Positions 1-11,173 of a DNA stretch of 64,000 bases are shown piece after piece. Within the stretch, counting starts at the first letter, position 1; each line of letters begins with the position of its first letter. Below the pieces are notes generated by a model, which was given only the letters and a program-made list of their open reading frames with translations, was not told the origin of the DNA and ran no database searches. A program made the position numbers and the translations under genes. This stretch comes from an uncultured bacterium (GTDB lineage Bacteria; Planctomycetota; UBA1135; GCA-002686595), in assembly GCA_943787795.1 (NCBI GenBank), contig CALSNU010000001.1, positions 1,384,285 through 1,448,284 of the forward strand, given 5' to 3'.

Positions 1-702
1 GTGCTGAACGTCGGGCTGCCCGGCTACAACACCTGGCAGGAGCATCGGCTCTACGAGAAGCTCGTTCGACCGATGGCTCCGGATGTGGTGGTCCTGGGTT
101 GGTACCTGAACGACCTCGACCCGCTGAGCTACGGGGTGACCGGCACCCTGGCGCCCCTCGATCACCCGCTGGCGGGCACCGCGCTGCTGGACTACTGGGT
201 CCGCAAGCTCCGCAAGAAGTACCCCAAGTTCGAGTTCGAGGGCTTCGACCAGGCGGCCGCGCAGGAGATCAAGCCGTACTACGACAAGAACCGGCCGCTG
301 GTGGAGCACAACAGCGGCCACCCGGAGGCGAGGCCCTACGTGGAGCGCAACCTCGCGGACCTCGGCGCCCTGCTCGATGACATCAAGGCCGACGGGGTGA
401 CCCCCGTGCTGACCATCTTCCCGTCGGTGGGCCAGGTCGACGCTCTCAAGGCGGCGCGGGCCGACAAGCCCGCCGCGGAGTACGAGGCGGACCTCGCGAT
501 CATCGCGCGCATCCAGCGCGACCTGACCGAGTTCGTCGGCCTCAAGGGGGTCGCCGTCGTGGACCTCCTCGTGCCGTTCATGGACAGCGAGGTTCGGCCC
601 TACGGTGAGGTGGACCAGAGCCACCCCAGTGTGCACGGGTACGGGATCGCCGCATGGGCCGTGCTCGAGGCGCTCGTGGCGGGCGGCCTGCTCGACCGCT
701 GA
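1..702 (+). CDS. SGNH/GDSL hydrolase-family protein, 5' end outside window
   Basis: Block II LNVGLPGYNTWQE, block III WYLND and block V DQSHP; high-GC3 codon usage; block I lies before position 1. Confidence 0.8.
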   Translation: MLNVGLPGYNTWQEHRLYEKLVRPMAPDVVVLGWYLNDLDPLSYGVTGTLAPLDHPLAGTALLDYWVRKLRKKYPKFEFEGFDQAAAQEIKPYYDKNRPLVEHNSGHPEARPYVERNLADLGALLDDIKADGVTPVLTIFPSVGQVDALKAARADKPAAEYEADLAIIARIQRDLTEFVGLKGVAVVDLLVPFMDSEVRPYGEVDQSHPSVHGYGIAAWAVLEALVAGGLLDR

Positions 703-770
703 TCCTCCGCGGCGGAGACCTCTCTCCGGCGGTGGCCACCCCGCGGCGGCGGCTCCCCCGATCCTGCGGC

Positions 771-820
771 TACTCCGATGCGGTGACACTGCCGATCCGG
801 CGCCACTGCCGATCCGGTGG
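771..820. repeat. Degenerate 16-17 bp tandem repeat (CACTGCCGATCCGG core) between convergent genes
   Basis: cactgccgatccggcgc at 787-803 and cactgccgatccggtgg at 804-820, preceded by a degenerate copy. Confidence 0.6.
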
Positions 821-841
821 GGCTGGCACGATGGAGGGCCC

Positions 842-1177
842 TCAGCGGGGCCGCAGGAGCGACCCGTGCATCCGGGTCACGAAGTCACCGACCTCGGCCG
901 AGCTGGACTCGAGGTGGCTCGTGAGCTCCTCCAATGGGCGCTCCTCCCAGTAGCCACGCAGGATCAGGGCGTGCATGGCCTGGACCTGGGTGCGCGGGTC
1001 GTCCGGGGTCCGTGCCCGCTCGAGGAGCTCCTCTGTGGTGGGGGCGCCACTCAGGCCCAGGGTGATCGTGATCGCCGCGGCGGCGCCCAGCCCCAGGGCG
1101 AGCAGCCACTGCACCGGGCCCTCGCCGTGCGGCTCGCTTGGGGCGACCTGACCTTGAGGGTCGTCTTCGGGGCTCAT
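842..1177 (-). CDS. Small single-TM hypothetical protein (111 aa)
   Basis: ATG at 1177 overlaps the TGA of the upstream GT (TGATG coupling); hydrophobic segment WLLALGLGAAAAITITLGL followed by a helical soluble domain. Confidence 0.7.
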   Translation of the reverse strand: MSPEDDPQGQVAPSEPHGEGPVQWLLALGLGAAAAITITLGLSGAPTTEELLERARTPDDPRTQVQAMHALILRGYWEERPLEELTSHLESSSAEVGDFVTRMHGSLLRPR

Positions 1178-2691
1178 CAGAGCTCCTCCAGGGATGCGAG
1201 GATCGGGGCGACGGCGAGGGTCCAGCTCCAGAGGAGCAAGCCGAGGGCGGCGACGAAGAGTGATCGACGGAAGAGCCCGCGCGCTGGAGGGCAGCGCAGG
1301 CTCGCCAGCGCAGCGGCGGCGGGGACGATCAGCAGGGCCTCGCCCGGCGCCCGGAAGCGCGACATGGCCACGACCAGGGCGAGGGGCGCGGTGGCCGCGC
1401 ATGCGGCGGCGACGAGCCCCGCGGCTCCCGGAGAGAGCGGCACCATGATGGATCCGTAGGCGGCGAGCAGGAGGAGGGCCAAGACCATGGCGATGGAGAC
1501 CAGGGTCAGGGGGACGCTGAACGGCCTGGAGGTCAGGACGCTGCAGTATCCGCCGGTGGCCTTGACGCCCGCGACCTCCGGGTCGGGCGGAGGCATGCGC
1601 AGGTAGCGCGTCATGTAGGACAGCGGCGTGAGCAGGTCGGCCACCTTCACCGCGCGCGTGCGGAGGAAGAAGCCCGTGTGGGCCCTGATGAACGCCCGTC
1701 CCGTGGCGACCGCGAGCCGGTTTCGCTCGGCGACGTCCGGGAGGAACTGGAACCGCCACTGCTCCATGTCCGCGGGCGGCTCCAGGAGGCTCGCGCGGAG
1801 CGAGGCTCCCGGTGCGCCGGCATCGGGGACGTCGAGCCCGACGAGGTCGAAGTTGATGTAGTCGCGGTTCCAGCCCATGTAGGCGTTGAGGCCGGCGGTC
1901 CGTCCGAGGAGCTGGAGGGACCCCAGGTCCGCGCTGGCCCGGGCGGACCAGGGCGCGATCGTCATGGCGGCGGCGCCCAGGAAGAGGACGGCCCGGCGGA
2001 CTCCCGTGGACCAGCGCCGCGACTCCAGCTGAGCAGGACGGCCGAGGGAGCAGACGCCCCACAGGCCCAGGGCCCCGAGCCAGAAGAGGCAGGCCTCCTT
2101 GGTGAGGCAGGCGAGGCCGACGGCGAAGCCCGCGCCCACGAGCGCGGCGGTCCCGCGGTGCCCGCGCAGCTCCCCGGCGGCCACCGCCAGCAACAGCGCG
2201 CAGGCCGGGAGCAGGAGGGCGATGGCGAGCCCCTCGCTGAGGAGCACGTGGGCGAAGGGGACCAGCGGCAGGTACAGGGCGGCGACCCACCCCGCCAGTC
2301 GACCCGCGCGCTCCGAGTGGGCGCGGGTGGCGAGCACCATGAGCCACCCGCAGGACCACACCGAGAGGAGGGTCAGGACCACACGGGCGGCGGTCTCCCC
2401 AGCCTCGCCGAAGACCGACACGCAGGCGGCGATCAGCGCCGGGTGCAGGGGGGGCCACTGCCCCGTGTAGGCGCCGAGCTCGGACCAGGCGCGCCCGAGC
2501 CCAACGTAGGCGGGTTCGTCCCCGCGGAAGGCGCCGCCCGCCGCGGACATGAGCCACAGGCCCCGGACCACGGCTGCGCACAGGAGTGGCGCGAGCCAGC
2601 CCCCCGGGAGCCAGCGTGCCTGGCTCGGGTGCTCGGTCGGCGCCGCCACGGGGGGCGGCTCCGCGGGGGCGATGTTGGGGCTGGGCCTCAT
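1177..2691 (-). CDS. GT-C fold (ArnT/PMT-like) multi-pass glycosyltransferase
   Basis: About 10 or more TM segments; GDEPAY in first loop, WPPLHP, LSEGL, APWSAR and SRFRAP motifs; start chosen at ATG 2691. Confidence 0.75.
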   Translation of the reverse strand: MRPSPNIAPAEPPPVAAPTEHPSQARWLPGGWLAPLLCAAVVRGLWLMSAAGGAFRGDEPAYVGLGRAWSELGAYTGQWPPLHPALIAACVSVFGEAGETAARVVLTLLSVWSCGWLMVLATRAHSERAGRLAGWVAALYLPLVPFAHVLLSEGLAIALLLPACALLLAVAAGELRGHRGTAALVGAGFAVGLACLTKEACLFWLGALGLWGVCSLGRPAQLESRRWSTGVRRAVLFLGAAAMTIAPWSARASADLGSLQLLGRTAGLNAYMGWNRDYINFDLVGLDVPDAGAPGASLRASLLEPPADMEQWRFQFLPDVAERNRLAVATGRAFIRAHTGFFLRTRAVKVADLLTPLSYMTRYLRMPPPDPEVAGVKATGGYCSVLTSRPFSVPLTLVSIAMVLALLLLAAYGSIMVPLSPGAAGLVAAACAATAPLALVVAMSRFRAPGEALLIVPAAAALASLRCPPARGLFRRSLFVAALGLLLWSWTLAVAPILASLEEL

Positions 2692-2720
2692 CAGTGATCG
2701 CAAGCTACACGATGCCGCGC

Positions 2721-4142
2721 TCAGCGCAGCGCAGAGAGCGTCTGTTGAACGCCCTCGATGGACGGAACCCACAGCAGGAGCAGCCCGGCGCCGATCACGG
2801 TGGCCGCTCGCCGGCGCGTCTTGCCGTCGTCGGCCCGAGTCCCGATCAGCGCGAGGGCCGCGAACCCGATCAGGAGCGGGAGCGCCGGAAGCCGGTAGCG
2901 GCTCATGCCGTTGACGAGGGCGGAGAGGACGACCACGCCGCTGACGCTCAGGAGAAGGCCGCGGTGGGCGGCGCTCGCCTCCATGGCCCACCAGCCCCGG
3001 AGCGCGAGCAGGAGGAGCGCTGGGACCATGAGGACCGCGCAGGCCGCGAAGGCCAGACGGGCGCCGGCGCCCCCGAGCGGCGGGCCAGGCGACGCGAGCC
3101 GAAGGCTGCGGACAGGGAAGGAGAGCGGGCTCAGCAGGTCCACGAGCTCGACGACGCGGCTCCGAAGGAAGAAGACCGGGTGGCGCGCGGCATAGCGCAG
3201 GCCCTGGGTCACATTCGCCCGGGCTCGCGCTGCGGGCGCGCCCTGACTCTCCGCGCTCCAGGCCTCGGGCGCCGGACCGCGGATCGCCGCTCGCAGGGCG
3301 CCGGGGGCCCGGGCAGGGGCGCCGCCGAGTCCGGCGAGGTCGTAGTTCACGTCGTGGGCATTGAGCCCGACGTGAGCGCTACCGCCGGTGGAGATCGCGA
3401 TGGGCACCAGCTGCCCATGCACGGCGGCGTTGCGCAGGGTCCACGGGAGGATCGTCGCGAGCGAGCAGGCCACCATCGTCAGCGCGAGGGAGGCGCGCGA
3501 CGCGCCGCCGGCGGCTCCGTTCCGTGCGAGCCACAGGCCGAGGATGGGAACGAAGAGGAGGCTGCTCTCTCGGACGAGCGCCGCGAGCCCCAGGAGCACG
3601 CCCGCGCCCGCTGCTACTCGCAGCGAGGCCGCGCTGGAGCGGCGGCTCGCGGCCGCGAGCAGGGCGAGGGCCGGGGTGAAGAGCGCGAGGTGGAGCGGCT
3701 CGGAGTAGAGGAGCCCGGCGAAGCCAGCGAGGGGCAGGTAGAGCGCGGCGATCCACGCGGCGCAGGCGCCGCCGCGGCGGCCGCCGATGATCGCGGCGAG
3801 CGCGGCGATCCAGGCGACGTTCCACAGCCCGAGCACGACCTGCAGCCCCCGAAGGGCCGCGGTGGAGGCGTCGCCCAGGAGGCCGCCGAGGACGGCGATG
3901 AGGGCGGGGTACCCGGGGGCCCAGATGCCCTCATAGGTGCCCTCGAGGCGCCATCGCTCTCCGAGAAGGAGATAGGCGCGCTCGTCGCCCGCGGGGTCCG
4001 TCCCACTGAATGCGATCGCCACCGCGATCCGCACGCAGGCGGCCGCCAGGAGCGGCAGCAGCAGGGAGGGCCAGAGGGGACGCTGAAACGAGCCCTCAGC
4101 CGCGTCCTCCCTCACCGCATCGTCCTCTGAGCTGGCATTCAT
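2721..4142 (-). CDS. GT-C fold (ArnT/PMT-like) glycosyltransferase, paralogue of 1177-2691
   Basis: GDERAY, WAPGYP, YSEPL, LPWTLRN and SRYRLP motifs; multi-TM; co-linear with the downstream paralogue. Confidence 0.78.
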   Translation of the reverse strand: MNASSEDDAVREDAAEGSFQRPLWPSLLLPLLAAACVRIAVAIAFSGTDPAGDERAYLLLGERWRLEGTYEGIWAPGYPALIAVLGGLLGDASTAALRGLQVVLGLWNVAWIAALAAIIGGRRGGACAAWIAALYLPLAGFAGLLYSEPLHLALFTPALALLAAASRRSSAASLRVAAGAGVLLGLAALVRESSLLFVPILGLWLARNGAAGGASRASLALTMVACSLATILPWTLRNAAVHGQLVPIAISTGGSAHVGLNAHDVNYDLAGLGGAPARAPGALRAAIRGPAPEAWSAESQGAPAARARANVTQGLRYAARHPVFFLRSRVVELVDLLSPLSFPVRSLRLASPGPPLGGAGARLAFAACAVLMVPALLLLALRGWWAMEASAAHRGLLLSVSGVVVLSALVNGMSRYRLPALPLLIGFAALALIGTRADDGKTRRRAATVIGAGLLLLWVPSIEGVQQTLSALR

Positions 4143-4193: not shown

Positions 4194-5723
4194 TCAGAAG
4201 AGCGTGTAGATGAAGGGGGCCACCAGCGGCGAGGAGGCCGCCACGACCAGCAGGCTGCCGACGCTGAGCAGCACGCTCAGCAGCGGCATCAGGTACCAGT
4301 GCCCGCGCAGGGTGAAGGACCGCAGAAGCTCCGCGATGGTGCCAATCCGGTCTCCGAGCTTGAACAGGACGAAGGTCAGGATGGTCAGCAGGAGGCCGAG
4401 GATCGTCAGCTGGGAGGCCTGGGGTGGGAGCGCCTCCACGAGCCACGTCACGCCGAGGCCCGTGCTGAAGACCACGGCGAGGAGGGCGGCGACGCTGCCG
4501 AAGCCAACGAGCGCGCTCTCGTCCGGATACGTCCGCCTGTATAGGGTTCCGAGCGCGCCCGTCAGAGCCAGATACCAGAGGACCCAGACGGGCACCTGGC
4601 CGCTGCTCTTCACGGGTCCTGTGGGGAGAGTCTGCGACGCGCCCTCGCCAAGGGGAGGAAGGAGCTTCGCGCCTTCCAGCGCCCCGTGGAGGGAGACGGC
4701 GAGCGCGACGTTGCCGTCGGCGTTGAGGTGGAAGTCCCGTCGGTAGTAGGGCGGGGCCTCTGCCGCGAAGGACTCGATGGCGACCAGCGGGTCGAAGACC
4801 ATGGCGCCCGTCGCCCGCGCGGCCTCGATGAAGAGCGCATGGGGCCGCGCCGGGTCCAGGGGGGCGCCGGCGACCGCGGGCGGGGCGCTCGCCTGGGTCT
4901 TCGAGGGGATCGGGCACACGGCGAAGCGCGCGCCGAGGGCCTCGCAGCGCGCTGACATGGCGGCGATCAGGGCGCGGGTGCGAGTCTCGGCTTCTAGGAC
5001 CGCAGGCGGCGGGTCCGTCAGCCGTGAGGAGAGCTCTGCGGAGAGCGTGATCTCTCCCGACGTGATGAGGGGCACGCTCGGGGCGCCGCGGAGTCGATAC
5101 CAGGCCTCTCCGAGGGCGGAGCGGCGGCTCCAGTGCCGGGCTGGTGGCGACGCGAGGCTTCGCTCTACGAGGACGCCTTCGCTGTCGTAGAGGGGCTTGT
5201 CCTGGCCGAGGTAGGTGGGGCTTTGATTCCACCAGATGTCGTTCTCGTAGGCGAAGTAGACGACCAGGTCAGGGGCGACCGCCTCACCGTTCAACTCGAG
5301 CCATCGCAGGGACTGATCGGTGGAGTACCCCTGGGTCCCCGCGTTCATGATCTCCACCGGGCGGCCCTCGATCTGCAGGGCCCGCTCGAGCTGGTCCACG
5401 AAGAGGTCCTCGCGGTCCACGGTGTACCCGACCACGAAGGAGTCCCCGAGAAAGAGCGCGCGCCGGGTGCCCTCAGGCGCCGGTGCGAGGGCGTCGTAGT
5501 CGTCCCGGAGCCCCGCGCCGTCGTTGGTGAGCGTGACGTCGTACTCGCCGGTCGAGCGCTCGATGGTCTTGCCGGGGGTCTTCCGCCAGCCGAGCTCTGG
5601 GTCGAACTCCGTGTTGACCACCGTCGGCGTGAAGCCGAGCGCGCGGAGGCCGAGCTCGGTGACCCCGAGGGCGATGCCGGCGGTGACGAGCAGCGCGAGG
5701 ATGACGTTGAGGGTCTTCATCAC
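4194..5723 (-). CDS. SGNH (AlgJ/AlgX-like) protein fused to C-terminal TM helices and a DUF5989/SxtK-like tail
   Basis: N-terminal TM; FLGDSF, NAGTQGYSTDQ, YEND and DFHLNADGN blocks; four C-terminal hydrophobic segments; ends WYLMPLLSVLLSVGSLLVVAASSPLVAPFIYTLF. Confidence 0.85.
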   Translation of the reverse strand: MMKTLNVILALLVTAGIALGVTELGLRALGFTPTVVNTEFDPELGWRKTPGKTIERSTGEYDVTLTNDGAGLRDDYDALAPAPEGTRRALFLGDSFVVGYTVDREDLFVDQLERALQIEGRPVEIMNAGTQGYSTDQSLRWLELNGEAVAPDLVVYFAYENDIWWNQSPTYLGQDKPLYDSEGVLVERSLASPPARHWSRRSALGEAWYRLRGAPSVPLITSGEITLSAELSSRLTDPPPAVLEAETRTRALIAAMSARCEALGARFAVCPIPSKTQASAPPAVAGAPLDPARPHALFIEAARATGAMVFDPLVAIESFAAEAPPYYRRDFHLNADGNVALAVSLHGALEGAKLLPPLGEGASQTLPTGPVKSSGQVPVWVLWYLALTGALGTLYRRTYPDESALVGFGSVAALLAVVFSTGLGVTWLVEALPPQASQLTILGLLLTILTFVLFKLGDRIGTIAELLRSFTLRGHWYLMPLLSVLLSVGSLLVVAASSPLVAPFIYTLF

Positions 5724-5730
5724 GGACGGT

Positions 5731-7521
5731 TCAGGACACCATCTGGGTCACGGAGTCGCCGTCGTGGCGCAGGTGGAAGGTCGTCTCGGCGATCTTCTTC
5801 TTGGCGCTCGCCTCGACGATGAAGTTGTTCATGAACAGGAAGTCCATGCCCGACAGCGAGAACGTGTTGAAGGCGTGGGCGGGCGACTCGACGATGGGCT
5901 CGCCCTTGAGGTTGAACGAGGTGTTCATGATCACCGGCACGTCGGTGAGCTCGCCAAAGCGCTCGATGATGCGGTGGTAGGCCGGGTTGGTCTGGCGGTA
6001 GACCGTCTGGAGCCTGCCGGAGCCGTCCTCGTGGGTGATCGCTGGCAGCACGTCGCGCTTCTCCTCGCGCACGGGCGCCACGTAGAGCATGAAGCGCGCG
6101 GGCCAGTGCCGCTCGGGCTCGGGGATGTCAAAGAACTCGTCCGCGCGCTCCTCGATCACCGACGGCGCGAAGGGCCGGAAGGACTCGCGGAACTTGATCT
6201 TCGAGTTGAGCTTCTCCTTCATCTCCATGCGCCTTGGGTCGGCGATGATGGAGCGGCTGCCCAGGGCCCGTGGACCCCACTCGCAGCGGCCGCGCATCCA
6301 GCCGCAGACGTGGCCCGACTCCAGGGTCCGCGCAACGAAGTCGAAGAACTCTTCGTCGTCCGAGATCTTGCGATAGGGGATGTCGTTCGCCTCGAGGAAC
6401 GACTGGATGGAGTCGTCCCCGTGCTCGCTGCCCAGGTACGCGTGCTCCAGGGCCGGGCCCCGCGGTTGGTCGAGCAGGTGGTTGTAGGCCCAGTAGGCGG
6501 CGCCGGCCGAGCACCCGTCGTCGCCGGGAGCGGGGTGGATGTAGACGTCCTCGAAGGGCCCCTCGCGCATCAGCTTGTAGTTGGCCACCGAGTTCAGGGC
6601 CACGCCGCCGGCGAGGCAGAGCTTCTTGAGCCCCGTGATCTCGTGCAGGTGCGTGATCATCTTCAGCAGGATCTCCTCGGTGACCCGCTGGATGCTCGCG
6701 GCCATGTCGCAGTAGTACGGGTCTAGCGAGGTGTCCTGATGCTTCGGGTCTCGGCGTGGCCGGCCGAAGTGCGCCTCGAAGAGCGGGCTCAGGGTGTCGT
6801 TGGTCGAGTGGTGGTACTTGAAGTACCGCATGTCGTGCCAGAGTGACCCGTCCTCGGCGACATCGAGGAGCTTGTAGATCTCGTCGCAGTACTTCGGCTC
6901 ACCGTAGGGGTGCATCCCCATGAGCTTGTATTCGCCCTCGTTGATCTCGAAGCCGCAGTACGCAGTGAAGGCAGAGTAGAGCAGGCCGAGGGAGTGCGGG
7001 AAGCGCATCTCCTTGAGGACCTCGATCTTGTTCCCGCGACCGACGGCCATGGTGGAGGTGGTCCACTCACCCGCGCCGTCGACGGTGAGGATCGCGGCCT
7101 CCTCGAAGGGCGACGTGTAGAAGCTCGACGCCGCGTGGGAGACGTGGTGGTCCGCGAAGAGGAACTTGGAGCGCGGCACCTCGAGGCGCTTGCTCATCAT
7201 CGACTTGATCCAGAGCTTGTCCGAGATCCAGCGCTGCATGGACTCCCGGAAGACCGCTGCGCTCTTCGGGAACGTGGCCATGGCGGTGAGCAGCATGCGC
7301 TCGAACTTCACGAAGGGCTTCTCGTAGAAGACCACGTAGTCCACGTCGTGGATCGTGATGCCACCCTGCTTCAGGCAGAACTCGATGGCGAGTTCGGGAA
7401 AGCCTGAGTCGTGCTTCTTGCGGCTGAAGCGCTCCTCCGCGGAGGCCGCCACGAGCACACCGTTCTTCACCAGTGCGGCGGCAGAGTCGTGGTAGTAGAA
7501 GGAGAGGCCGAGGACGTTCAT
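5731..7521 (-). CDS. O-carbamoyltransferase (NodU/CmcH/TobZ/SxtI family)
   Basis: YHDSAAAL..EERFSRKKHD, HHVSHAAS, DGAGE, EYKLMG, GGVALN, EWGPRALG.RSI, KFRESFRPFAP and NTSFN motifs. Confidence 0.95.
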   Translation of the reverse strand: MNVLGLSFYYHDSAAALVKNGVLVAASAEERFSRKKHDSGFPELAIEFCLKQGGITIHDVDYVVFYEKPFVKFERMLLTAMATFPKSAAVFRESMQRWISDKLWIKSMMSKRLEVPRSKFLFADHHVSHAASSFYTSPFEEAAILTVDGAGEWTTSTMAVGRGNKIEVLKEMRFPHSLGLLYSAFTAYCGFEINEGEYKLMGMHPYGEPKYCDEIYKLLDVAEDGSLWHDMRYFKYHHSTNDTLSPLFEAHFGRPRRDPKHQDTSLDPYYCDMAASIQRVTEEILLKMITHLHEITGLKKLCLAGGVALNSVANYKLMREGPFEDVYIHPAPGDDGCSAGAAYWAYNHLLDQPRGPALEHAYLGSEHGDDSIQSFLEANDIPYRKISDDEEFFDFVARTLESGHVCGWMRGRCEWGPRALGSRSIIADPRRMEMKEKLNSKIKFRESFRPFAPSVIEERADEFFDIPEPERHWPARFMLYVAPVREEKRDVLPAITHEDGSGRLQTVYRQTNPAYHRIIERFGELTDVPVIMNTSFNLKGEPIVESPAHAFNTFSLSGMDFLFMNNFIVEASAKKKIAETTFHLRHDGDSVTQMVS

Positions 7522-7530
7522 GGTGGGCGG

Positions 7531-7740
7531 TCAGTCCTGGTGCCGGGCGGCGGCCACGTCCTCGTTCGTGCTCTCCCACTTGGTCCAGTTCCCCGCTTGG
7601 CGCCGCTTGAGGTGCAGCGGGTCGCAGACGCGCTGATACACGAGCGCGACGGGGCCGAGCACACCGTAGTAGAGGGCCGTCAGCAGTAGCCTCGAGACCA
7701 TGCTGCCGAAGCGTTCCGTGAACTGAGCGAGGGCTTGCAT
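7531..7740 (-). CDS. Short SxtJ-like membrane protein (69 aa)
   Basis: LLLTALYYGVLGPVALVYQRVCDPLHL...W resembles the C-terminal half of SxtJ-family proteins; lies 9 nt upstream of the carbamoyltransferase. Confidence 0.75.
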   Translation of the reverse strand: MQALAQFTERFGSMVSRLLLTALYYGVLGPVALVYQRVCDPLHLKRRQAGNWTKWESTNEDVAAARHQD

Positions 7741-7876: not shown

Positions 7877-9346
7877 TTATCGGACGAGAACCCCCTTGAG
7901 CAGCTCCTCTCGCTGATAGGTGGCGTCTCCATTCAGGTCGCGGTAGGCGTCGATCTCGATCTCGGTCCCCGGCTCGATCCGGTCAAGCACCAGCTGCAGG
8001 GTCGCCTTGTCGCTCAGGCGGATGGCCCCGGAGCGCGGGCGGGTCCGCGGGCGAAGGGCCGGGATCACGTCGCCGGGGCGGAGTCCAAGCTCTGCCGCCG
8101 AGCTCCCATCTCGAACTCGCTGGACCATGAGGAAGCGACTGCGACCGAGCTGCCGCTCCGTCACGGTGACCCCGATCTCGGAGAAGAACCTGCCGTTCAT
8201 GTCGTCCCAGGATCGTAGGGTCACGATCTCGGAGGCCCCTCCCGTCCCGCTGTCGGCGCGGATGATCCCCACCGTGAAGTCCGCGCCTGAGTCGATCTGA
8301 AGTGACTGGAGCAGGAAGGACTCGGAGTCGGGGATGGGCACCCCGTTCAGGGACACCACCTGGTCGGCCTGGCAGATGCCGGCTGCGGCGGCGGGACCCT
8401 GGTCCCAGACGCGCGTCACGGTCAGTTCACCCGCCCGCTCCTCGACGTCGAAGCCGAGCCATGAGCGGCGGGCGTCGGGGAACAGGCTGTCCGTGAGCAC
8501 CTGGCGCACCCGGTCCACAGGAATGGCGAAGCCGATGTTCTCTGCGTCGGTGTTCATGACCGTGTTGATCCCGATCAGTTCACCGTGAATATTCAGCAGG
8601 GGGCCGCCGGAGTTCCCGCGGTTGATCGAGGCGTCGGTCTGGATGAGCCCGCGGAAGTGGAGCTGGCGCCCGGGGACAGGGACCTCGCGGTAGAGGCCGG
8701 AGATGATCCCCGTGGAGACCGTGTAGGTCTGGCCGTGGGGGTTGCCGATGGCCACGACGCGCTCGCCTGGCATCAGGTCCGAGCTTGTTCCCATGCGGAC
8801 CGTGGGGAAGGCGCTCTCCCCGGCCGGGCGCAGGTCGGCCGCGCCGTCGTCGTCCGGGAGCTCGGGCGCAGTGACCCCCGCGGCGACTCCCAGGGGTTGG
8901 ATCTTGAGCAGCGCGAGATCCTCCTCGCGCACGGAGGACATCAGCCGCGCGGGGTACTGATTCGGATCGCCATCGAAGGAGACTGTGATCTGCTGGGCGC
9001 CTTCCACGACGTGGTAGTTCGTGACGATGAATCCCGAGGGGTGGATCACCACCCCTGAGCCCGAGCCGGACATCACCTGGCGCTGAAAGCCGAAGATCGT
9101 GCGGACGTTCTGGACCATCTCGGTCTCCACGTACACCACGGAGGGCTTCACCGCCTGGGCGACGCGAGCCTCCGGTGTCTCGCGCTCGATGGAGCGCAGG
9201 GACTCGTAGAGCTCCAGTCGACCTTGGTCCACCTCGCCCTGTGCGGGAGCTGAACCCAGCTGGGCGTACAGCGGCGCGCCGCTCGCGGCGGCGAGGCAGA
9301 GGGCGGCGAGGAAGAGGCCGAGGGGGCGTCGGTTGGGTTGAGTCAT
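7877..9346 (-). CDS. HtrA/DegP-family serine protease with two PDZ domains
   Basis: Signal peptide; GSGSGVVI, VTNYHVV, DLALLKI and QTDASINRGNSGGPL triad motifs; two PDZ-like C-terminal segments. Confidence 0.93.
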   Translation of the reverse strand: MTQPNRRPLGLFLAALCLAAASGAPLYAQLGSAPAQGEVDQGRLELYESLRSIERETPEARVAQAVKPSVVYVETEMVQNVRTIFGFQRQVMSGSGSGVVIHPSGFIVTNYHVVEGAQQITVSFDGDPNQYPARLMSSVREEDLALLKIQPLGVAAGVTAPELPDDDGAADLRPAGESAFPTVRMGTSSDLMPGERVVAIGNPHGQTYTVSTGIISGLYREVPVPGRQLHFRGLIQTDASINRGNSGGPLLNIHGELIGINTVMNTDAENIGFAIPVDRVRQVLTDSLFPDARRSWLGFDVEERAGELTVTRVWDQGPAAAAGICQADQVVSLNGVPIPDSESFLLQSLQIDSGADFTVGIIRADSGTGGASEIVTLRSWDDMNGRFFSEIGVTVTERQLGRSRFLMVQRVRDGSSAAELGLRPGDVIPALRPRTRPRSGAIRLSDKATLQLVLDRIEPGTEIEIDAYRDLNGDATYQREELLKGVLVR

Positions 9347-9684
9347 GGGGGGATGAGTTGGGTCCGTGGCACCGTGCGGCTCCAGCGGGTGGGGCGGAGG
9401 CGCTCCTATTCTCGTACGCCGGCCCCCTGACTTCGTGAGCAGAATCATGCTCCCGACCGTGGTGAGGCCAGTGTCTCGCCTTCCAGCGCTCCACCCCGGC
9501 GATCGGGCCGCGGTCGAAACCCGCTGCAGGCAGCCAGCAGGAGGACCTCAGCGGGTTGAAACCAGACCCCATCAGCCCCGGGACCCGGTCTGCGCCTGGA
9601 TCCCTCTGGCCCGTCCCCGCATGGGCCAGTGCATGGGTCCGTCCCGCACGAGCCACCCCTTCGGCTCCTGAAAGGGCCATGAAG

Positions 9685-10054: not shown

Positions 10055-11173
10055 GTGAAGATTGGCGTCGTCAAGGAGATCAAGAACCACGAGTACCGCG
10101 TGGCCCTTCGCCCCTCGGGAGCCGAGCAGCTCATCGCGGACGGCCACGAGGTCATGGTGGAGACCCTGGCAGGGAAGGGCACCAGCCTCGGCGACGACCT
10201 GTACGAGGGCGTCGGATGCAGCATTGGCGCCTCGGCGGCCGAGGTCTGGGCGAGCTGCGACATGATCATGAAGGTCAAGGAGCCCCTCGCCTCCGAGTGG
10301 CCGCACATGCGGGCGGGACAGACCGTCTTCACCTACTTTCACCTGGCTGCGGATCGGGAGCTCACGGATGGCATCCTCGCCACCGGCGCCCACTGCTTCG
10401 CCTACGAGACCCTCGAGGTCGGGGGCAAGCTGCCCCTGCTCGAGCCCATGAGCGAGGTGGCCGGAAGGCTGTCGATTCAGGCCGGGGCCAAGTACCTGGA
10501 GAAGCCGGCCGGTGGAGTGGGACAGCTCCTGGGCGGCGTCCCAGGCGTGGCGCCTGCGGAGGTCGTGGTCATCGGCGGCGGCGTCGTCGGGACGAATGCA
10601 GCGCGCATGGCGGCCGGCCTGGGGGCCAACGTGACCGTGCTGGACGTCAACCACGAGCGGATGCGATACCTGGACGAGATCCTCCCGGCAAACTGCATGA
10701 CGATCTACTCGAACCCCATGAGCGTTCGGGAGAAGCTCGAGGCCGCGGACCTCGTGGTCGGGGCGGTCCTGGTGCCCGGCGCAGCGGCCCCCAAGCTCAT
10801 CAAGCGCGAGCACCTGGCGTTCATGAAGGAGGGCAGCGTCATCGCGGACGTCGCGGTGGACCAGGGAGGTTGCTGTGAGACGACGCGCCCCACCACCCAC
10901 GAGGAGCCCACCTTCGTCGTGGACGGGGTCGTTCATTACTGCGTGGCGAACATGCCAGGCGCCGTGCCCCGTACGAGCACCTTTGCCCTCACCAACTCGA
11001 CCCTCTCGTGGGCCCGCCGCCTCGCGCGGCTCGGTCCGAAGCAGGCGATCATCGGTGACGCCGGGCTCGCGTCGGCCGCCAACACCGTCGGCGGCAAGCT
11101 GACCTGTGAGCCGGTGGCCCAGGCCTTCGGCATGGAGTTCATCGCTCCCGTGACGGCCGCGAACAGCCTCTGA
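10055..11173 (+). CDS. ald: Alanine dehydrogenase
   Basis: [34 protein letters not shown] and [16 protein letters not shown] motifs. Confidence 0.96.

Follow-up and report, generated by a model that had tools for sequence, protein, structure and literature searches.

AlgI/AlgJ is among the MBOAT-SGNH systems that share a C-terminal hexapeptide, F-x-Y-x-x-F. The same ending was found in a three-gene operon on contig CALSNU010000001.1 (GCA_943787795.1), within the 64,000-nucleotide stretch at positions 1,384,285 to 1,448,284 that is referred to as the window. The operon encodes a carbamoyltransferase (CT), half of an SxtJ-type membrane protein and an SGNH protein fused to a DUF5989 module that carries the hexapeptide. 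These probably form a carbamoyl relay, in which the CT would load the tyrosine of the tail and a serine of the SGNH domain, predicted to lie outside the cytoplasm, would pass the carbamoyl group on. The tailed feature is real and strongly conserved; the relay most likely works like the Dlt and PatA/PatB systems, yet is not a member of that group, as it lacks the MBOAT. Most close relatives carry the label Planctomycetota, and the DNA occurs in marine metagenomes.

As far as the available text of PMC12148441 goes, the FXYXXF motif occurs in DltX and PatA, and an acetyl-tyrosine has been shown for PatA, which PatB uses as the donor to its SGNH serine. The window operon resembles the Dlt system (DltA, DltC, the MBOAT DltB, DltX and DltD) in that a membrane microprotein or module ends in F-x-Y-x-x-F after one transmembrane (TM) helix and has an SGNH partner, but it lacks an MBOAT, an adenylation enzyme and a carrier protein, has a soluble CT and SxtJ instead, and carries the tail fused to the SGNH protein. 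In PatA/PatB and AlgI/AlgJ, the tail ends the loading MBOAT, whereas here it ends the SGNH protein. Compared by description, the sxtI-sxtJ-sxtK-sxtL genes of saxitoxin clusters differ in that the available accounts propose no mechanism and regard SxtL as a decarbamoylase; the window has only half of an SxtJ and a fusion of the K and L types, and nothing in it points to toxin synthesis. In the accessible part of PMC3037375, Lyngbya wollei is described as having a truncated sxtI, no sxtL and no carbamoylated products, and that of PMC5132012 adds nothing on mechanism. TobZ, NovN and GdmN share full-length homology and catalytic residues with the window CT but act directly on soluble small molecules, whereas the clade of the window CT has a longer hydrophobic lid and membrane partners.

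Three minus-strand open reading frames (ORFs) make up the operon, at 7531-7740 (69 amino acids), 5731-7521 (596 amino acids) and 4194-5723 (509 amino acids), with gaps of 9 and 7 bases. Their main features are as follows.

7531..7740, minus strand: 69-amino-acid membrane protein, C-terminal half of SxtJ, predicted by modelling to pack against the DUF5989 helix
5731..7521, minus strand: CT of the TobZ/NovN/GdmN type, 596 amino acids, cytoplasmic, no signal or TM segment (Pfam, hydropathy)
7171..7314, minus strand: CT residues 70-117, acceptor-pocket lid, predicted docking site of the DUF5989 amphipathic helix (model contacts)
4590..5723, minus strand: N-terminal membrane anchor and SGNH domain, predicted extracytoplasmic (Pfam, charge bias, TM count, AlphaFold pTM 0.85)
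4197..4343, minus strand: DUF5989 (SxtK-type) module fused to SGNH, with amphipathic helix, TM helix and uncharged 13-residue tail (Pfam E value, 7e-11)
4197..4214, minus strand: FIYTLF hexapeptide with candidate carrier Tyr506, codon 4206-4208 (sequence)

The original prediction, made from the sequence before any search, had placed the ORFs, the FIYTLF end, the Tyr codon and the TM helix before it correctly, and its assignment of the second gene as a NodU/CmcH-type carbamoyltransferase was borne out. The 596-amino-acid protein is a class III carbamoyltransferase that matches Pfam Carbam_trans_N and Carbam_trans_C and aligns to NovN with an E value of 1e-101. Its sequence has Kae1-like and YrdC-like domains, the catalytic His, and two His and two Asp ligands. 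Residues H11, H125, H129, D148, D334 and K443 are intact and conserved in 68/68 aligned members; by the roles assigned from GdmN (PMC9633730, in the part available), His11 is catalytic and H125, H129, D148 and D334 are metal ligands. The predicted SxtJ-like membrane protein held only in part. The 69-amino-acid ORF matched no Pfam family, SxtJ PF19588 included, and an hhalign comparison with 53 SxtJ-type proteins matched it to the SxtJ C-terminal half only (probability, 96; E value, 1.7e-9). The three extra TM helices of the fusion were considered as the missing N-terminal half and rejected (profile probability, 14). A Pfam SxtJ search of the genome found nothing, which was uninformative because no control gave a match either.

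Pfam matches of the 509-amino-acid protein were Lipase_GDSL_2, ALGX and DUF5989 (residues 461-509; E value, 7e-11), the last (DUF5989/SxtK, PF19451) at 42-49 bits against a cut-off of 27. An N-terminal anchor is followed by the SGNH domain, three or four more helices and the C-terminal DUF5989 module, in which a hydrophobic helix (residues 478-496) precedes the FIYTLF tail. The SGNH triad consists of S95 (5439-5441), D330 (4734-4736) and H332 (4728-4730); in the SGNH-DUF5989 fusions, S and H were present in 42/42 and D or E in 42/42. Contigs from two other studies span the SGNH-tail junction and the stop codon without gaps, so the fusion is not an assembly error. Contigs from RNA libraries of the study that may be the source overlap parts of the CT and SGNH genes and do not demonstrate transcription, and no promoter signal was found.

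Conservation and linkage of the tyrosine tail

Only 3 of the 74,168 stop-bounded six-frame segments of at least 30 amino acids in the genome end in F-x-Y-x-x-F, namely the 509-amino-acid protein and two MBOATs. All 44 related loci examined end in FIYTLF, and the Tyr is kept in 42/42 SGNH-DUF5989 fusions, the tails of which are all free of K, R, D and E. A set of 71 DUF5989 proteins was gathered from 60 proteobacterial stretches, five plasmid loci, four further loci and the window; its members all had the Tyr (71/71), and the last residue was Phe in 66 and Tyr in 5; of the two residues expected to be constant at this C-terminus, the Tyr was and the terminal Phe nearly so. The Tyr was also kept in all of the 150 best of 5,937 library clusters. 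Both the 71- and the 150-member sets were selected with profiles that include the tail, and a noncircular test was therefore built on a tail-free profile, taken from columns 1-30 of 28 short paralogs. This returned 40 further sequences ending within 55 residues, not counting the rows used for training, the FIYTLF rows and one match that extended to 57 residues. A Tyr was found in the last eight residues of all 40, at position −3 or −4 in 35, and its flanks varied freely.

Searching for homologs with the tail initially gave nothing beyond close fragments. The window's own tail did not match DltX PF12459, and 2 of the 28 microproteins matched it weakly, below the cut-off (best E value, 0.008; 16 bits against 25). 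Apart from the loci of family f2 described below, all 26 MBOAT loci returned by the same search end in an F-x-Y-x-x-F of their own, on full-length MBOATs. In profile-profile comparisons with MBOAT tails, DUF5989 reached a probability of 45 and the microproteins 84, a weak similarity because of which common ancestry of DUF5989 and MBOAT tails is not shown. No DUF5989 was found in a phage collection, and the microprotein profile gave no meaningful match among solved structures.

The 43 related loci, relatives of the window locus, held a CT in 38, a half-SxtJ in 39 and an MBOAT in none, with misses mostly on short contigs, and the DUF5989 gene set was present in 50/61 relatives of this genome. 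In an even sample of 301 proteobacterial genomes, representing another phylum, 61 had DUF5989 above the cut-off, with 68 matches. Sixty stretches reaching ∼7 kb to each side, which cover 61 of these matches, included a CT in 58, SxtJ in 52 and an MBOAT in one, which had its own tail. The invariant-Tyr tail after a TM helix and the Ser-His-Asp SGNH domain are shared with MBOAT-SGNH systems, but the linked loading MBOAT is not (0/43 and 1/60 loci). The co-occurrence expected from the original prediction was seen for the CT and for the lack of an MBOAT, less so for SGNH, which was adjacent in only 21/60. Across whole genomes, the CT clade (≥800 bits) was found in 58/61 DUF5989-positive and 3/240 negative genomes, and in one of the negative genomes with a CT (G133) a contig edge falls just after SxtJ. 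An SGNH profile (E value, 1e-19) matched 51/61 positive and 9/240 negative genomes, or 33/43 positive genomes without the 18 used for training; a Fisher test on this co-occurrence was set aside, as kin are not independent. Sinorhizobium meliloti 1021 has SGNH, SxtJ, DUF5989 and CT, and annotated plasmid loci place the gene set in exopolysaccharide contexts (Ensifer and Paludisphaera).

As predicted, the window has no MBOAT. The genome inventory comprises one CT, one DUF5989 above the cut-off and three MBOATs, all of the last on other contigs. In an alternative reading, which is very unlikely, an MBOAT from another locus would load the tail as a genuine acyl shuttle, the product would be acylated and the CT would have a separate job. 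An MBOAT is present in 38/61 DUF5989 genomes, the SGNH profile also matches MBOAT-adjacent SGNH proteins (up to 97 bits), and DUF5989-like microproteins do occur in MBOAT loci, in 4/4 genomes of family f2. Against it, 23/61 DUF5989 genomes, including one assembled as a single 5.4-Mb contig, have no MBOAT match; each of this genome's three MBOATs bears its own Tyr tail; the CT clade tracks DUF5989; and the CT is the predicted binding partner of the DUF5989 helix.

The f2 loci also bear on the carbamoyl relay. In 4/4 searched genomes (G037, G046, G053 and G059), an AMP-binding enzyme and a 400-amino-acid tail-less MBOAT face a DUF5989-like microprotein ending in PFLYGVF and an SGNH gene (SGNH-TPR), and a carrier protein was seen in 3/4. 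These loci, which come from one lineage and have Pfam scores just under the cut-off, are Dlt-like in layout, with the DUF5989-like peptide in the DltX slot, and support a shuttle. They correspond to L208 (G046), L239 (G053), L240 (G037) and L241 (G059), in planctomycete relatives. Two proteobacterial Dlt-like loci (L205:1630-6188 and L204:3845-7872) have unannotated microproteins of 47 to 55 amino acids with a Tyr(−4) motif and no Pfam match.

Natural variants and dispersed microproteins

A membrane-free operon was found in genome G094 (L252:3868-7083, G094:C13), comprising an anchorless SGNH protein, a CT and a soluble 107-amino-acid protein ending in SPFIYVMF. Searches with its SGNH protein identified 13 metagenome loci, of which 5 had the same three genes (four being near-copies), 6 were cut by contig ends, and 2 had SGNH-CT fusions beside CT and SxtJ and no tail gene. 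The operon was also seen in L257 and L259-L262, where the carrier has ∼110 amino acids and no Pfam family. The carrier tails follow the pattern S-x-[FY]-[IL]-Y-x-M-x, with Tyr at −4 in 6/6 carriers from three lineages. The CTs of these operons form one group among DUF5989-linked CTs in a quick tree of 35 rows (Shimodaira-Hasegawa-like approximate likelihood ratio test support, 99) and have a changed lid without the conserved hydrophobic residues. Thus, CT, Tyr tail and SGNH stay together without a membrane, an MBOAT or SxtJ, and this variant, like the f2 loci, speaks for the shuttle. When relatives of the soluble carrier were sought by a word search, it matched nothing but itself; its Atlas look-alikes all scored <0.9, and 201 genomes of another phylum gave no match to the soluble-SGNH profile. 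Fusions of ∼1,000 amino acids, joining a soluble SGNH to a degenerate CT, lie beside intact CT and SxtJ with no DUF5989 at L247:8599-11805, L268:5986-9168 and L266:5962-8847. The C-terminus of the SGNH-CT fusion in genome G223 was considered as a soluble carrier and rejected, as there was no resemblance.

Tandem paralogs of 41 to 45 amino acids directly follow the fusion gene in many relatives and match DUF5989 with a profile probability of 98. In L009:6476-7421, L024, L028, L060 and others, arrays of up to about five such Tyr-tailed membrane microproteins were seen, too short for most gene callers. Elsewhere, 36 further stretches around DUF5989 matches included 16 with a CT and 20 without, and 12 of the 20 CT-free stretches hold an SGNH gene, usually as the next gene, where ∼2% would be expected (11 such genes in 4.7 Mb). 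This genome has three microproteins (C1:1383657-1383785, C2:248433-248549 and C3:21344-21463), two of which adjoin SGNH genes. Scattered pairs of this kind may serve as extra unloading units.

Peptide arrays of this form, with a constant N-terminus and a variable C-terminus, could also suggest that Tyr-tailed peptides are the end substrates of a pathway resembling that of RiPPs (peptides made by the ribosome and then modified after translation), in which the CT modifies the peptide and the SGNH enzyme releases a small product by cleavage, the part that CgnD plays in making crocagin. The crocagin cluster, in the text of PMC10070186 that was available, includes a carbamoyltransferase (CgnI) together with the SGNH protein CgnD, and the SGNH fold search returned CgnD as its top match. 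That search gave generic SGNH matches only, CgnD at 13% identity, and CgnD is reported to be a slow leader-peptide protease of a soluble RiPP pathway. In addition, the main copy of the tail is fused to a 509-amino-acid enzyme and nearly invariant across phyla, the would-be leader is a membrane helix and not part of a soluble leader-core precursor, and no other conserved tailoring genes accompany the CT-SxtJ-DUF5989 trio. A RiPP-like role is very unlikely.

Several further layouts of the trio were observed. In L168, L174-L176 and L182, a second, divergent CT-SxtJ-DUF5989 type occurs in relatives, often with an opposite-strand methyltransferase between the genes, and 738-amino-acid ORFs in L160 and L162 cluster with both CT and SxtJ and are probably natural CT-SxtJ fusions. 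In L122, L132, L133 and L138-L140, SxtJ-DUF5989-CT has lptF/lptG-type genes close by and no SGNH next to it, which may point to lipopolysaccharide.

Predicted complex and proposed relay

The CT, the half-SxtJ and residues 455-509 of the fusion were folded together with alignments. The complex scored 0.70 and the best of three controls 0.00; a mark of 0.70 was reached by 116/157 solved complexes and 2/215 mismatched pairs, a calibration that is only rough for a three-chain job. Runs shared at least 48% of contacts, with a partner pLDDT of at least 68. DUF5989 residues 458-493 were in contact with CT residues 70-77 and 95-117 and with the SxtJ helix, and contacts of the 69-amino-acid protein fell at residues 12-35 and 67-69. 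CT Y66 aligns with NovN Y82, after which the lid stretch follows, and in GdmN pocket helix 1 (E85-E98) lines the acceptor pocket (PMC9633730, available text). Because the model contacts fall on the stretch aligned to this GdmN/NovN pocket helix, the lid of the CT pocket would, by this prediction, rest on the helix of DUF5989 at the membrane. The modelling proposed alongside the original prediction thus docked the DUF5989 helix on the CT and left the Tyr unplaced.

The SGNH domain and the tail are probably, though not certainly, outside the cytoplasm, judging from hydropathy and charge bias. The K/R bias is 2.45 ahead of the anchor and 1.0 behind it; the loop that precedes the last helix has a value of 4.3, the one joining helices 3 and 4 a value of 0.33, and the tail 0. 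DUF5989 proteins that stand alone begin with a basic segment for which CT binding is predicted, and the single TM helix after it puts their tail outside. Both observations speak against a relay that is real but wholly cytoplasmic, in which SGNH domain and tail face inward and nothing crosses the membrane. A fully soluble version does exist, and one helix required for the outside topology is borderline; for the window operon such an arrangement is nevertheless highly improbable.

We infer all chemistry of the carbamoyl relay. Judging from its family, the CT, with its catalytic residues intact, would make carbamoyl-AMP from carbamoyl phosphate and ATP, while the DUF5989 amphipathic helix and SxtJ are predicted to hold its acceptor pocket against the inner face of the membrane. 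The uncharged 13-residue tail could dip into the membrane; it would fold back along the DUF5989 and SxtJ helices so that Tyr506 reaches His11 and is carbamoylated, the weakest step of the proposal. The tail would then swing out to Ser95-His332-Asp330, where, by analogy with DltX-DltD and PatA-PatB, a carbamoyl-Ser and then the product would form. The acceptor would probably lie in the envelope, a glycan or lipid being a guess from neighbours: glycosyltransferase, nucleotide-sugar or amidotransferase families were present in 21/60 stretches and lptF/G in 6/60, which makes a surface glycan only a fair guess. To our knowledge, no enzyme-made carbamoyl-Tyr intermediate was previously known, and the relay would be the first, in a family of thousands of sequence clusters. 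A literature search, for which most subscription papers and supplements were beyond reach, found no paper naming DUF5989, PF19451 or PF19588 and no proposal of a Tyr carbamoyl shuttle.

Several observations weigh against this relay. Tyr506 (chain-3 residue 52) is absent from the confident contacts of the complex, in which the tail is not confidently placed; the AlphaFold model of the fusion gives the tail a confidence of 60-70 and no Tyr position. Of the four C-terminal helices, the first exceeds the hydropathy threshold in no more than 30/42 fusions, and the window protein is not one of these; for this reason the outside location of SGNH is not certain. Divergent microproteins have acidic linkers and could not dip far into the membrane. 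Among the 150 best library matches, 28 continue beyond the motif, with extensions that look mutually unrelated and may be lost stops. An SGNH of the window type lies within 7 kb in only 21/60 proteobacterial loci and was undetected at an E value of 1e-19 in 10/61 DUF5989 genomes; the genomes compared are kin, some of them incomplete, and members of the positive set served to train both the CT and the SGNH profile. Finally, G223 and loci L266 and L268 have CT and SxtJ without detectable DUF5989, while G287 has a related CT and SGNH and neither SxtJ nor DUF5989, and the layouts of G223 and G287 argue against an obligate trio.

Some of these points fit a different reading, in which DUF5989 and SxtJ only anchor the CT, which directly carbamoylates a cytoplasm-facing or lipid-linked substrate, the tail acts non-covalently, and the SGNH enzyme removes carbamoyl, as proposed for SxtL. 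The confident model contacts are confined to helices, TobZ, NovN and GdmN act directly on acceptors (PMC9633730, available text), SGNH adjacency is limited, and CT and SxtJ loci without a tail exist; the decarbamoylase role of SxtL is, in the available parts of PMC2679770 and PMC3037375, a proposal only. This reading leaves unaccounted for the invariance of a Tyr that lies across the membrane, and it does not explain why microproteins retain the Tyr with all flanks variable, why the same tail ends a soluble protein of a membrane-free operon, or why the tail is used beside a tail-less MBOAT. It is considered unlikely. The carbamoyl shuttle first proposed from the sequence is partly supported. 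Its comparative predictions came out favourably, and neither of the adverse outcomes looked for, a variable Tyr or a consistently linked MBOAT, was found; the unplaced Tyr, the unexplained membrane crossing, the guessed acceptor and the SGNH count remain on the other side.

The relay could represent a third kind of Tyr shuttle beside MBOAT-SGNH and AT3-SGNH, a generalization for which the chances appear evenly balanced. Carbamoyl would be moved across the membrane without a polytopic transferase, by a soluble CT together with one or two small membrane proteins and a hexapeptide that flips, and the hexapeptide would be interchangeable between CT and MBOAT loaders and also usable on a soluble carrier.

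Neighbouring genes and significance

Downstream of the operon, the following features were identified in the window.

2721..4142, minus strand: multi-pass membrane protein, weakly glycosyltransferase-like (NCBIfam E value of 0.09 only; one member of its family matches PMT_2)
1177..2691, minus strand: second multi-pass membrane protein, of the same family (start inferred; STT3-like and cell-surface-polymer matches below cut-off)
1..702, plus strand: 3′ part of a second membrane-anchored SGNH gene (382 amino acids), head-to-head with a 42-amino-acid Tyr-tailed microprotein

The microprotein lies ∼500 bases outside the window (G000:C1:1383657-1383785, minus strand). The protein at 2721..4142 is not a conserved part of the module, its family occurring in three loci, window included. 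The two glycosyltransferase-like membrane genes and the second SGNH gene (window 1-4142) appear to be inserted between the fusion gene and a set of microprotein, deacetylase, GNAT and B12 radical-SAM genes, a set that in most relatives comes right after the fusion. An HtrA-type protease gene (7877-9448) immediately upstream, on the same strand, is conserved in 33 loci, and a 372-amino-acid gene (10055-11173), alanine-dehydrogenase-like by eye, is conserved in 24; both are probably plain synteny.

If the relay is correct, it would give a mechanism to a common, unexplained gene set, present in 61/301 genomes of one phylum and 50/61 relatives and represented by 5,937 sequence clusters, and would show a way for an ATP-dependent enzyme of the cytoplasm to act on extracellular molecules with neither an MBOAT nor an AT3 channel. 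SxtL-type SGNH proteins would become transferases and not presumed decarbamoylases. In Lyngbya wollei, sxtI function and sxtL are lost together, which is as compatible with this reading as with the published one (PMC3037375, in the part available). The soluble variant would let the central step be tested in a membrane-free setting and is the easiest system for in vitro work. In marine bacteria and rhizobia, the relay would predict carbamoylated surface glycans that have been overlooked.

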